Shown: positions 10,029 through 30,648, numbered from the stretch's first letter. The stretch: 64,000 nt of DNA from Dictyostelium discoideum (GCA_000004695.1 CM000154.2:1280001-1344000), one strand, 5' to 3'. The notes: generated from the sequence alone by a model not told the origin. Numbers and translations: made by a program.

Positions 10029-12032
10029 TTATTTTTTTTCAAGTTCAATAGATTTACTATCGTTGTCACTATTATTACTATTTTTACTATTATTACTATT
10101 TTTACTATTATTACTATTTTTACTATTATTATTTTTTCCAAAACTGATATCAGTTCTACTATTGTTTCTAGAAATTCCAGATTCACTTTGGGAAAGTCTG
10201 CTTCTTACTTCATCAAATACAACCTCTGACCAAATATCTCTTGCAACTCTTGAGGTTCCATATATTGAAAAGAATAAAACACCAAAAACTCTAATAAAAA
10301 AATAAAAAATGAAAAAAGATGCATAGTTCGGTCCAGTTGTAAAACAAGTTTCTTCTGACCCACCACTTAATAAACAAAGTACATAATCTGCCACAGCAGC
10401 TTTATATGAATCAATTTTCCTTTCAACATCAAAAAAGAAAATAAATAAATACAAAAATGAGCCAGCAACAGAAAAAACTAAAGAAAAAGGTTTGATTTGT
10501 CTTAATATAAATTCACTCTCTCTAATGTTAACTTTTTTTGAAATCTTAAAAAAAAGTTTTTTTTTTTTAAAAATATTAGTTAAAAAATATAATGAAAAAT
10601 AATTTAATGTTAAATATTTACATTATAAATCTCATGAATAACGCCACCAATACAGAAAATACCAATTGAAAGACCAATACCACAAGGCAACCAAAAAAGT
10701 GTAATAACAAACCTGGAATTTTAATAATATAAAAAAAATAATAATAATAATTTAAATATTAATAACTATCAATATTAAAATTAAATATTTTAAAATTAAT
10801 TTAATAAATACAAACCATCTTTCTCTAACCCAACATTCAATATAACCTGTACCAGCAACCATCTTTTTTGCTGATAAAAGTATAACAGTTGTTATTATAG
10901 TAAAAATTGTATTTCCAATCATAAAATGTCTAAAATAAAATAGTTTTATTCTTTTTACACTACAAAATAATACTATACTCATTGTCATTGCCCAGCAACA
11001 ACAATAGGTTATACCAAAATGAAACATTGCTCCGGTAATTCCACATGCAGCATCATTTTGAACAGCACTTCTACCTGGCTCTGGACATAGAAACTCCTCA
11101 ATACCATAACCAAATTTAATAATATCAGTTAAATAAACCAATGCAATAGAAGTAGACATCAAGGTGATACATATATTATATTTTGATTTTCTTTTTCTAT
11201 TTAAAATTCCAAATGTTAAAATATTATAACAAGCGCAAATAAAACTAATTGATGATAAGGTTTTAGCCATATCATAAACTCTTTTCCATTGGGTTTTTGT
11301 ATAATTTGGCATTGGACAAGTTAGAACGCAGTTTGTTGGTGGGAGATAGGTATAACCTTTATTGGGTGAATATTTTGGGTCACTTGAATTTTTTAAAAGA
11401 AGTGGGTATGGACAAGCTTGAATTAATTCCATTTGGTTGGAAATATTATTATACCCGTCTGTTGGATCAATACATGGTACCTTATATAATCCTTTATTTT
11501 CAGTATACCCATATAGTGTTAAATTATATTCAGTTCCAATCTCTGGAAATAAAAAGGAAATTGAACAATCAATTTTCAAAGAAAGTCTTGGACAATTTGA
11601 GACCATTCTTTCACATACAGATTTACATAATCTTTGAGGCAATGAAACATTTTGTAGAGGTGTAATTTTGGGTATCGTTTCAACACAAGGAGAAAAATTT
11701 AAATCGCACAAACCGAATTGGGTAAATAATAAATCATCGCATTGGTCTTGTAAAAATGTTAAAGCTTCAAAAGATTTTAAAATTTCTATTTTTGAAAGTT
11801 CCTGGGAAGAAATATTTTTATTATCAACAAGTGTAACAGTTGAATAAATTTTTTTACCTCCATTAAATAATCTGTTATTACAAAGTGGTTGGCCAATTGA
11901 ATCCCCGACATAGTTCAAACATTTTGAACCTGGAAATACAATTCCAACTCCATATCCTTTGCTATATTCATTATTTTCCCCATTAATTATTATTATTTTT
12001 AAAATTAAATAAATTAAAAAAATTCTAATCAT
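10029..12032 (-). CDS. Frizzled/Smoothened-like (Fsl-type) 7TM receptor with an N-terminal Frizzled cysteine-rich domain, paralog A. Three exons: 10816..12032, 10622..10712, 10029..10544.
   Basis: Signal peptide MIRIFLIYLILKIIIING. Frizzled-CRD cysteine pattern: C..LLF.QFGLC..NFSPC...LPQRLCKSVCERMVSNCPRL. Seven hydrophobic helices. Post-TM7 YGTSRVARDIW resembles the Frizzled KTxxSW region. Exon 1 ends ...RERW(tg) with a gtttgt donor; the 91-nt exon 2 encodes FVITLFWLPCGIGLSIGIFCIGGVIHEIYN (TM6), which is collinear with paralogs B and C; then gtaaat..ttaag|ATT into exon 3 (ISKKVNIRESEFILRQIKP...). The three-exon model gives about 607 aa. Confidence 0.6.
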
Positions 12033-12249
12033 TTCTTAAATGTTAAATATTTATATAAATGTTAAACTATTAATAATTAAATATAAAACAAAAAATAAGA
12101 TTGCTTAAAAAAAAAAAAAAAAAAAAAAAAAACAACAACGAAATACCCATTTAAAAAAAACAACCAATTACCAGAGCCACTTTTTTTTTTTTGAATTCTT
12201 TTTTTTTTTGATTGGTTCTTGAAATCTCAGGAAAAAATTAGATTCAAAC

Positions 12250-12285
<36 letters not shown>

Positions 12286-12297
12286 TTTTTTTTTATT

Positions 12298-27979: not shown

Positions 27980-28484
27980 AAAATTAATTTACACAACAAA
28001 TTCAAACGCGGAAATTATAAAAAATAAAAAAAAATAAAAATAAAAAAAAAAAATAAAAAAAAAAAACTTCTATTTTTAATCAAATAATTTCAAAACAAAT
28101 TTTCTTACAGAATAAAATTTTTAAATTATTTATAACACTTTAGATTTATAACCTTGTGTGTAAGAGTATAACAAATATATGGAAATAGTTTTTTACTATT
28201 TCTATATTTTTTCTTTTTCTTCTTCTTAAAATAAATAAAAAAAAAAAATTAATTAAATATTTAAGTACACTGTTCATCAAATTCAATAAGAGTTCCTTTA
28301 CCCAAATTAATTTCTAACCCGAACTTTAAAAATCTCATATCTTTTAATAATTAAAAATTAAATAAAATAAATAAAATCTATTTTTAGGATTAAAAAAAAA
28401 AAAATTAAAAATAATAAATAAATAAATAAAAAATCTATGAGCAAACCGAAATTATTAAAAAAAAAAAAAAAAAAAAATATTTTT

Positions 28485-28552
28485 GGAAGTTTTAAAGAAA
28501 AAATATTTGCTCATAATTAATTCTAAGCAAGTATTTTTTCTTTAAAACTTCC
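28485..28552. promoter_or_regulatory. 26-bp near-perfect inverted repeat (hairpin/palindrome) with a 16-nt loop, about 300 bp upstream of Fsl paralog C
   Basis: Left arm ggaagttttaaagaaaaaatatttgc (28485-28510); right arm gcaagtattttttctttaaaacttcc (28527-28552). One mismatch. Confidence 0.5.
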
Positions 28553-28842
28553 TCATTTATTTTTATATTTAATTTTTTTTTTTTTTTTTTAAAAAATAAT
28601 ATTCAATGATGGCTTTTCATGAAAATCATTCGAACCATTTTCAATTGGCTTTCCGATTAAAATATTTTTAAATTTTTTTTTTTTTTTTTGTCAGATGAAG
28701 ATCAAGATCTTGTCAAAAAAAAAAAAAAAAAAAAAGGATTTTTTTAAATTAATAAAGATTTTATATTTTATAACAAATTTTTTTTTTTTTTTTTTTATTC
28801 ATAAAAAATAATAAATCTCTTTTTTCTTTTAAAAAAATAATA

Positions 28843-30648
28843 ATGAAATCAATAATATTTATAACTTTTTTTATTTTTTTTTTAAAAAAATTAAATGGAT
28901 TACCAAATGGATATGGAGTAGGATTAGTTGACCCAAATGGGCAATGTATGAATTATATTGGTGATTCAATTGACCAACCATTATGTAAAAACAAATTATC
29001 AAATAATGGTGAATTTATTTATTCTACAATTGGAAATTCATTAAATTCACAAACTTTATCACAACAAACAATAGCAAAATCATTTGAAGCATTAACATTC
29101 ATTCAAAACCAATGTCAAGATTTATTATTTGCAGAATACGGAATTTGTAATATTTATTTATCACCATGTATTATAACAACTGTAGCACCATTGAAAAATA
29201 TATCGCTGCCACAAAGATTATGTAATTCAGCATGTCAAAGAATGGTTACCAACTGTCCAAGGCTTGGAGAAAAAATTGATTGTTCAATTTCATTTTTATT
29301 TCCAGAAGTTGGGACACTGTATAACCTATCTGATTACGGCTATAAAGCCAATGGTGGTTTATATGAAGTACCATGTTTTAATCCAACTGCTGATTATGAC
29401 AATTCCTCTAGTTTAAATGAATTTATTGAAATATGTCCCTCTCCATTATTATTAAAGAATTCAAGTGATCCGAAATATTCAAAAAGAGGCTATACTTATC
29501 TTCCACCCACAAATTGCGTACTTCCATGTCCAGTTCCAAATTATACAAAAGAAAAATGGAATCAAATTGAAAACTTGTCAAAAGTATTATCAACAATTAG
29601 TTTTGTATGTTCAATTTATAATATATTATCATTTGGAATTTTAAAAAAAAAAAAAACTAAATATACAATTTGTATATCAGCACTTTCAGCATCAGTTGCA
29701 TTGATCAATCTTGGAGATATCATAAAGATTGGGGTTGGTTATGAAAAAGTACTATGTCCAGAACCAGGTAGATTTGCAACACAAGTAGATGATCCTCTAT
29801 GTGGATTAACCGCTGCATTATTCCATGTTGGAATTTGTAGCACTGTATTATGGACTACAACAATGGCAATTTATTTATATTCAGCAATTAAAAATATTAA
29901 ATTATTTAAATTCCGTTATTTTATAATTTTTAATACTGGATTTTCATTAACAAGCTTAATAATTGCTGCATCAGCCTCAAAATTCGAAGCTGGTACTGGT
30001 TCAATAGAATGTTGGATTAGAGATAGATGGTATTCAATATGTTTATTCTGGCTTCCTTGTGGTATTTGTTTATTAATTGGTACAATTTGTATTGCTTCTG
30101 TCATTGTTGAAATTTATAAAGTATTTTTTCAAAATTTTTAATATATATTATTTTTAAAAATTATTTAATTTCATATTAATTATTTTAAATTTATTATTTA
30201 GGTTTCCAAGAATATTAAATTAAGTGAAAGTGAAACAATAATGAGACAAATTAAACCAATTATAAGTGTAATTTTAGTATCTGGATCATTTACATACCTT
30301 TTTATAATATTTTTTGATATTGAAAGAAACTTTGGAGGATATAGATCAGCAGTGACTGATTATGTTTTATGTCTATTAAACAGTACTGATAATGGTATAG
30401 AATGTCATACAAGTGGTCCTAGCTATAATCCTTATTTTATGTTTTACTTCTTTATGAGGTTTTTTGGAATTCTATTCTTTTTAATTTATGGCACTTCAAA
30501 AAATGCAAGAGATTCCTGGTATGAATTATTTATAAAAATTAAAGTCTCTCTTAGTGAAACCTCTTCAACAATTAGTAATAATAGTGGTGGTGGTTCTAGT
30601 CAACAAAAACAACAACAACAAAATGAAATAAAACTGGAAAAAATTTAA
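28843..30648 (+). CDS. Frizzled/Smoothened-like (Fsl-type) 7TM receptor, paralog C. Two exons: 28843..30120 and 30202..30648.
   Basis: Signal peptide. CRD: FEALTFIQNQCQDLLFAEYGICNIYLSPC...LPQRLCNSACQRMVTNCPRL. Seven TM helices. Donor ...EIYK|GTATTT at 30121; acceptor tttag|GTT at 30202, phase 0. Exon 2 VSKNIKLSESETIMRQIKP...YGTSKNARDSW. About 574 aa. Same intron position as paralog B. Confidence 0.6.

Follow-up and report, generated by a model that had tools for sequence, protein, structure and literature searches.

We analyzed a 64-kb window of the Dictyostelium discoideum genome (GCA_000004695.1 CM000154.2:1280001-1344000; 64,000 nucleotides), in which three related receptor genes, here called A, B, and C, are located. 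Taken as a whole, the best explanation of the locus is that the three genes very probably belong to the Fsl receptor family, that they arose by an old tandem triplication in the order B-A-C which was later broken by an inversion, and that A gained an additional intron on its stem, at the border between the second extracellular loop (ECL2) and the fifth transmembrane segment (TM5).

The window is AT-rich (14-34% GC), its open reading frames (ORFs) are rich in poly-N/Q, and its introns are short and AT-rich. We rebuilt the gene models from the junctions proposed in an earlier note on this DNA, reading each coordinate pair as the first intron base and the first base of the next exon. The models of A, B, and C yielded uninterrupted ORFs of 607, 591, and 574 amino acids, respectively. 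Gene B (12298..14154, minus strand) has the exons 14154..12886 and 12804..12298, separated by an intron at 12805..12885, and its product was identical to FslF of strain AX4 (Q54J77 / XP_636810). Gene C (28843..30648, plus strand) has the exons 28843..30120 and 30202..30648, separated by an intron at 30121..30201, and its product was identical to AX4 FslG (Q54J71 / XP_636816). With these clean ORFs and the two exact matches, which were found in a protein collection, the spans of the three genes and every exon/intron border of the earlier note stand. A tblastn scan of the window detected no further Fsl copies.

Gene A (10029..12032, minus strand) is composed of three exons and is predicted to encode a Frizzled (Fz)-type cysteine-rich domain (CRD) together with a class F-like seven-transmembrane (7TM) core. 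Exon 1 (10816..12032) encodes the signal peptide, CRD, linker, TM1-TM4, and ECL2, namely residues 1-405 and two nucleotides of the W406 codon. The CRD, from C38 to C187, is located at 11472..11921 and contains 10 invariant cysteines. The extra intron specific to A (10713..10815; 103 nt, GTTTGT..CAG, 7% GC) lies in phase 2 within the W406 codon. It is followed by a mini-exon, exon 2 (10622..10712; 91 nt, W406-N436), which encodes TM5. The second intron (10545..10621; 77 nt, GTAAAT..AAG) separates the mini-exon from exon 3 (10029..10544), which encodes the third intracellular loop (ICL3), TM6, ECL3, TM7, helix 8, and a low-complexity tail. This second intron, in phase 0 after EIY(K/N), occurs in A, B, and C as well as in the FslB and FslD clades. 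The earlier note had placed it after EIYK/EVYK in all three genes; the intron is indeed shared, but A reads EIYN rather than EIYK. The spacer between the stop codon of B and the ATG of A, calculated from the model coordinates (12033..12297), is 265 bp, much shorter than the approximately 800 bp previously proposed.

A was 48-59% identical to FslB, FslC, FslD, FslF, FslG, and their orthologues, with a gap-free alignment through the 7TM core. It shares all invariant cysteines and the EIY(K/N) intron with the FslB/C/D/F/G subclade and grouped with these clades in a neighbor-joining (NJ) tree; the closest named paralogues were FslB, FslC, and FslD. Because the published Fsl list comprises fslA-H and fslJ-Q (PMC5821085), A is probably fslE according to this naming series. 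When fslE, fslF, and fslG were looked for in literature text, fslF alone was found, in Table 3 of PMC2643946, a list of genes for which some stocks or wild isolates of D. discoideum show putative deletion or high divergence. This listing suggests that fslF is dispensable or variable.

The mini-exon had been assigned to TM6 in the earlier note, so that the extra intron appeared to split this helix. An alignment of 17 family sequences, a profile match, and a structural model all placed it at TM5 instead. The alignment contained seven hydrophobic segments, and W406-N436 was the fifth. A family profile made from this alignment, which includes A itself, aligned the same stretch to the ECL2 cysteine, TM5, and the following 'FKIRSN' of FZD4. 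The AlphaFold2 (AF2) model of FslG contains helices at residues 236-267, 273-304, 318-350, 357-377, 395-428, 433-486, 502-523, and 526-550, and the equivalent of the mini-exon (residues 396-426) is in helix 395-428, the fifth transmembrane helix. In FslG numbering, the shared intron is located after K426 and the extra intron of A at W396. The two introns thus bracket TM5: the border with ECL2 holds the extra intron, and the one with ICL3 holds the shared intron.

As judged from comparative sequence data, the extra 103-nt block in A is a real spliceosomal intron. The pair at 10713..10815 was the only GT..AG pair nearby that restored an open frame, and none of the alternative pairs around it did so. 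By computation, retention of the block stops the protein at 426 amino acids, and skipping of the mini-exon creates a TGA at the junction and stops it at 405 amino acids. A full-length receptor thus requires removal of the block, as its retention ends the protein early. The orthologues of A in D. citrinum, D. dimigraforme, and D. firmibasis are interrupted at the same point of the Trp codon (TG/G, the slash marking the intron position), by introns of 112 nt (GTTTGT..AAG), 126 nt (GTTTGT..TAG), and 107 nt (GTATGT..TAG), respectively. In strain ACTFIW, the intron is 102 nt long with a GTTGGT donor. Three-exon models gave an intact ORF of 598-611 amino acids in all four species and in ACTFIW. The D. 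firmibasis model reproduced the span and the 598-amino acid length of the annotated gene exactly, the annotation of a second D. citrinum strain (P0026) splices both A junctions identically, and D. discoideum assembly GCA_054883475.1 contains a 607-amino acid gene on the identical span with identical DNA.

Substitution rates of the A orthologues were calculated by the Nei-Gojobori method for six species pairs. Nucleotide identity between species was 0.73-0.89 in the exons versus 0.42-0.65 in intron 1. The overall dN/dS was 0.10-0.15 at a dS of 0.59-0.91. For exon 3, dN/dS was 0.08-0.16, and dS of exons 2 and 3 reached 0.97. For the mini-exon, dN/dS was 0.11-0.22 in five of the six pairs and 0.67 in the remaining one, a value based on 10 substitutions. 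Between AX4 and ACTFIW, gene A showed a dS of 0.156 and a dN/dS of 0.08; non-3n indels (listed as +1, −2, and −6 nt) were confined to the two introns, and the sole exonic indel was an in-frame one of 18 nt. The ACTFIW sequence (GCA_054859355.1; L010 12166-14144) differs from AX4 by approximately 4.7% in gene A, which is high for a conspecific. The sustained purifying selection on the downstream frame would be inexplicable unless the block is spliced out. Conserved position and phase, a unique frame-restoring pair, and selection downstream agree with the proposal of the earlier note that A alone carries a 103-nt GTTTGT..CAG intron and a 91-nt exon.

Several observations weigh against a functional intron. 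Its donor departs from the consensus in having T at +3 (GTTTGT; GTTGGT in ACTFIW), and all of the other family introns examined (15/15) have A at this position. The automated annotation of ACTFIW calls a differing 558-amino acid model for A. The sole Logan contigs carrying A (L011-L013) are unspliced genomic sequence. The 607-amino acid product was not present in a collection of 15 billion proteins, nor was any AX4, RefSeq, or UniProt protein for A; the sole 100% match there was a 426-amino acid raw ORF ending inside the extra intron. The missing record, the weak donor, and the lack of a Pfam 7TM domain in A (see below) would be compatible with A being a decaying pseudogene, its AT-rich block having disrupted the gene on insertion and cut the protein short at 426 amino acids. 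This is scarcely credible, as four species and a divergent strain all keep the frame open past the block, exons 2 and 3 show a dN/dS of only 0.08-0.22 even at the highest dS, indels that are not a multiple of three occur between strains only in introns, and the spliced product is annotated in other assemblies. The absence of A from the protein collection says little, because annotated A orthologues, such as the 598-amino acid gene of D. firmibasis, are also missing there. Weak donors are tolerated in accepted gene models of the family, since the annotated FslG intron (30121..30201) has a non-consensus GTATTT donor. A reading of A as unannotated or as a pseudogene, taken from the missing 607-amino acid record, was dropped because annotated orthologues are likewise missing; the selection data reject a pseudogene.

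The phylogenetic distribution of this spliceosomal intron favors a gain on the A stem, before the four species diverged. The B and C orthologues contain the shared intron only, as do the FslB and FslD orthologues of D. firmibasis. Neither the D. firmibasis FslC orthologue nor an Fsc-type gene has any intron; in a T. lacteum homologue, two introns are present, both N-terminal and unrelated, and the extra one is lacking. The extra intron was thus absent from five outgroup lineages and from all B and C orthologues examined, and for this reason a gain is favored. A would have acquired its second spliceosomal intron, inside a Trp codon, after leaving the other copies and before the split of the four species. 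In the NJ tree, the A, B, and C clades each had 100% bootstrap support and (B,C) had 92%.

Two points weigh against a gain. The tree is a bootstrapped NJ tree only, in which A was sister to (B,C) with a bootstrap of just 54%, and intron loss is far commoner than gain in Dictyostelium, with 441 precise losses versus 40 putative gains (PMC4683709). Both are compatible with an ECL2/TM5 intron that was ancestral to the FslB-G clade, lost independently elsewhere, and retained by A; even the shared intron is gone from the FslC orthologue. We consider such a history improbable, because precise losses would have had to occur independently at least four times (on the B+C stem, in the FslD clade, in the FslB+C clade, and in T. 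lacteum), and also in the Fsc type, versus a single gain, and this holds wherever A attaches in the tree. Moreover, FslB, FslD, FslF, and FslG have kept the intron located just 91 nt downstream. Reverse-transcriptase (cDNA)-mediated loss tends to remove adjacent introns together, and it is disfavored because these four lineages kept the downstream intron. A 7-nt repeat of the site across the intron, described below, is also a prediction of insertion rather than of loss. As loss is about tenfold commoner than gain in this genus, we leave the loss scenario a small share of the probability. In the criteria of Logsdon et al. for a bona fide gain, as quoted in PMC4683709, a clear phylogeny with outgroup absence stands beside an identified source sequence; for the A intron, the former is given by the distribution described above, and the searches for the latter, described next and covering the window and the paralogue TM5 segments, returned no source.

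We then compared the insertion site of the gained intron in A with that of the uninterrupted paralogues, which read TG/GTATGTAA at this position (AGA TG/G TAT GTA A.., encoding W-Y-V). The ancestral site, as judged from these paralogues, resembles a 5′ splice site. The junctions of A contain an in-register 7-nt repeat, G/GTTTGT, which flanks the intron and matches at 7/7 positions in three species and at 6/7 in D. firmibasis. The intron of D. firmibasis begins with GTATGTAA, an 8/8 match to the ancestral coding string. This border repeat suggests insertion with target duplication. DNA inserted into the splice-site-like coding sequence may have duplicated a target of 7-8 nt, in which case the donor would be the upstream copy of the target, and only the 3′ end would come from the inserted DNA; we put this mechanism forward tentatively, as one possibility. 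A further point against the gain is that searches for the source of the intron returned none. No other copy of the intron was found in the window with up to three mismatches, and local alignments of the intron with exon 2 and the adjoining first part of intron 2, with intron 2, and with the end of exon 1 gave no significant similarity. Semi-global alignments with ten uninterrupted paralogue TM5 segments, evaluated against shuffled and empirical intron nulls, gave nothing convincing beyond the first 8 nt.

The same alignments bear on a tandem duplication of the TM5 segment (approximately 91 nt, together with GTAAG, the 5 nt that open the intron downstream), in which the upstream copy was spliced out from a cryptic GTATGT donor and subsequently decayed to AT-rich intron sequence. 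The ancestral site GGTATGTAA would be a ready-made donor for it, the GTAAG end would provide the AG, the expected unit of approximately 96 nt is near the observed 102-126 nt, and the 8/8 match at the start of the D. firmibasis intron is in line with it. Past these first 8 nt, however, the introns showed no significant similarity to their own exon 2 (p = 0.03-0.82), and comparison with the ten paralogue TM5 segments (p = 0.01-0.98) gave no excess over other introns in three of the four species. A tandem duplication is therefore rather unlikely.

The gained intron in A can be compared with documented intron gains. These include Daphnia introns that show short direct repeats (Li et al. 2009, as cited by PMC4683709), a potato RdRp intron gained by tandem duplication (PMC4974935), and two D. 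discoideum gains with sources, reported without border repeats (PMC4683709). Like these, the gain in A is lineage-specific and polarized by paralogues and outgroups. It was likewise inserted precisely, leaving the number of codons unchanged, and has a short border repeat and a splice-site-like site. Unlike them, the gain in A is old and common to four species, and for this reason no source sequence survives; it also differs from the two sourced D. discoideum gains in having a border repeat. The proposed target-duplicating insertion would follow the same logic as transposon or 'introner' insertions and double-strand-break repair insertions in other eukaryotes. The survey in PMC4683709 needed 1:1 orthologues in distant species, so the expanded Fsl family was probably excluded; the term 'Frizzled' does not occur in its main text.

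The sister species provided evidence for the origin of the array. D. firmibasis has three Fsl genes of 593, 598, and 582 amino acids on the same strand between a radical-SAM gene and a SET gene, and tblastn identified them as the orthologues of B, A, and C, respectively. D. citrinum and D. dimigraforme have the same B-A-C layout. A, B, and C each formed a single orthogroup across three to four species with 100% bootstrap support, and the duplications are old for this reason. The tandem triplication, in the one-strand order B-A-C, would predate the split of D. discoideum, D. citrinum, D. dimigraforme, and D. firmibasis. All three sister-species loci match the minus strand of the window through A to approximately 9970, then jump to the plus strand from approximately 28780 and continue into C, the SET gene, and an L16 gene. 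Because of this jump, D. discoideum is the species that carries the inversion (approximately 9970..28780), with the mapped breakpoint in the A-C spacer; the other breakpoint is expected to lie beyond a poly(A)-polymerase gene. The inversion would have moved C approximately 15 kb away, onto the other strand. It is common to the other two D. discoideum assemblies examined. Locus-tag numbering had hinted that ACTFIW keeps the un-inverted array; this was rejected, as ACTFIW is inverted too. The local origin of the cluster and the 15-kb distance of C, as described in the earlier note, therefore hold, but the duplications are old and the present placement of C is secondary to the inversion.

Membership of the three genes in the receptor family was evaluated with Pfam, applying gathering cut-offs of 32.1 bits for Fz (PF01392) and 22.3 bits for Frizzled 7TM (PF01534). 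Single-sequence support was weak. The Fz domain was below the cut-off in all three proteins, at 17.3 bits in A, 18.1 bits in B, and 18.2 bits in C (E = 0.004-0.007). Frizzled 7TM passed in C (28.6 bits) and was below the cut-off in B (19.4 bits), and A had no hit at E<=0.01 in a single-sequence search. In the Pfam check that the earlier note proposed, only the 7TM hit in C passed its cut-off. Fsl domains are frequently under the Pfam threshold (PMC10445921). Because the Pfam support was weak, a family profile and fold searches were needed to establish membership.

The 10 ectodomain cysteines, at positions 38, 51, 98, 109, 116, 136, 140, 147, 156, and 187 in A, were invariant in 17/17 family members. 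Further invariant cysteines were found in the linker (C207, C235, and C239), ECL1 (C316), the top of TM3 (C330), ECL2 (C400), and ECL3 (C493), and C503 in ECL3 was nearly invariant. In PDB, the family profile matched class F receptors only (FZD4, 1.5e-7; SMO, 3.7e-6; also FZD5 and FZD6), and every match ran through the 7TM core. The AF2 model of FslG best matched multi-domain Smoothened (1.5e-10), followed by FZD1, FZD7, and FZD4, ahead of adhesion/secretin G protein-coupled receptors. The A ectodomain, encoded by exon 1, was modeled confidently, with a predicted local distance difference test score (pLDDT) of 87.7 and a predicted template modeling score of 0.82. In a Foldseek search of PDB with this model, the top 18 matches were all Fz-type CRDs (FZD8, SMO, FZD7, ROR2, FZD5, and Nrk), with noise thereafter. 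Besides the Pfam scores, two points weigh against this assignment: the full-length FslG model was of moderate quality (pLDDT 64.5), and the CRD matches of the A ectodomain, while specific, were modest (probability 0.14-1.0, best E = 3.6e-3, template modeling score approximately 0.5).

Overall, A, B, and C appear from their sequences and models to be divergent receptors of a class F-like type, and their Fz-type CRD to be real, and the earlier description of Fsl-type receptors with a 10-cysteine CRD and a 7TM core is supported by the cysteines conserved in 17 sequences and by the profile and fold matches. Each protein is predicted to comprise a hydrophobic N-terminal leader, a 10-cysteine Fz-type CRD, a cysteine-containing linker, a class F-like seven-helix core, and a low-complexity tail. 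The CRD was 61-63% identical among the three, versus 54-60% for the 7TM segments, 65-68% for TM5, and 26-39% for the C-terminal tail. Thus, the CRD is not the fast-evolving part, contrary to the statement that the ligand domain diverges between copies.

The three proteins share with the metazoan class F receptors (Frizzled 1-10 and Smoothened) the CRD-linker-7TM architecture, the 10-cysteine Fz-type CRD fold, and the class F 7TM core. The cysteine pattern in the linker, ECL1, the top of TM3, ECL2, and ECL3 is also like that of SMO and FZD, a likeness based on the positions of the SMO disulfides. They differ from these receptors in an identity of only 12-21%, in the Pfam Fz scores under the cut-off, and in the lack of the Dishevelled-binding motif KTxxxW. 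This motif was absent after TM7 in A, B, and C, in which the sequences are YGTSRVARDIW, YGTSNIARKIW, and YGTSKNARDSW, respectively. To our knowledge, D. discoideum has no Wnt or Hedgehog ligands; therefore, ligand and coupling must differ from those of metazoan class F receptors. As far as can be deduced from the fold, A, B, and C are most likely cell-surface receptors in which the CRD binds a non-Wnt ligand and the 7TM core signals inward. KTxxxW is reported only in FslJ and FslK, and fslA, fslB, fslK, and fscE are the only family genes with reported phenotypes (PMC10445921). The reference for the Fsl family and its FslB/C/D/F/G subclade is Prabhu & Eichinger 2006, which both PMC10445921 and PMC5821085 cite. 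From this subclade, A differs in having the extra ECL2/TM5 intron.

Other features were observed around the locus. A large ORF for an LRR-Roc-COR-kinase-WD40 (Roco-type) kinase (5408..9862, plus strand) adjoins the 3′ end of A. It is annotated as a protein of 1726-1727 amino acids in other assemblies, and the sister species have the FslG orthologue at that position. A coding region at approximately 37886..39820 is internally repetitive: blastn aligned it dozens of times, in staggered fashion, with the end of the D. dimigraforme locus (L004 20.3-21.8 kb), as expected of a putative tandem-repeat protein gene.

Several irregularities were found in the sister species. The FslG orthologue of D. citrinum has lost approximately 1.45 kb at its 5′ end (L002 15557-16461, corresponding to 30290-31219 of the window). 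The annotations of two D. citrinum strains fuse the A orthologue with this FslG remnant into chimeric proteins of 640 and 678 amino acids (L002 12279-15880; P0026). The shared intron of D. citrinum A has grown to 474 nt via an (ATT)n microsatellite (L002 13886-14359); across the remaining species and strains, it measures 71-87 nt. In the annotation of D. dimigraforme, the orthologues of B and A appear as a single gene of 1214 amino acids (L004 4674-9062), and Rpb2 is joined to the radical-SAM gene (L004 1-4246). Both D. dimigraforme mergers look like automated mis-fusions of tightly packed genes. For annotators, it is relevant that several automated annotations fuse or mis-model the A, B, and C genes and that A was not found in a large protein collection.

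The receptor genes are known family members. The expansion in a Wnt-less organism, to which the earlier note drew attention, is real and already established (PMC10445921; PMC5821085), and in this respect our analysis adds little. As for the locus itself, an inversion later interrupted what had been an old tandem array in the order B-A-C. The location of TM5 on its own 91-nt exon offers a simple handle on whether splicing of the receptor is regulated. The intron of A is a clean new instance of something already known, and its insertion signature is suggestive and unproven. It adds a well-polarized amoebozoan intron gain on a defined branch, with a splice-site-like target and borders that carry a short duplication. 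Few such cases exist, and only two intron gains in Dictyostelium have any proposed source. If the target-duplicating insertion is true, the mechanism of this intron gain would be readable from the sequence, in a group (Dictyostelia) for which hardly any gain has an explanation.

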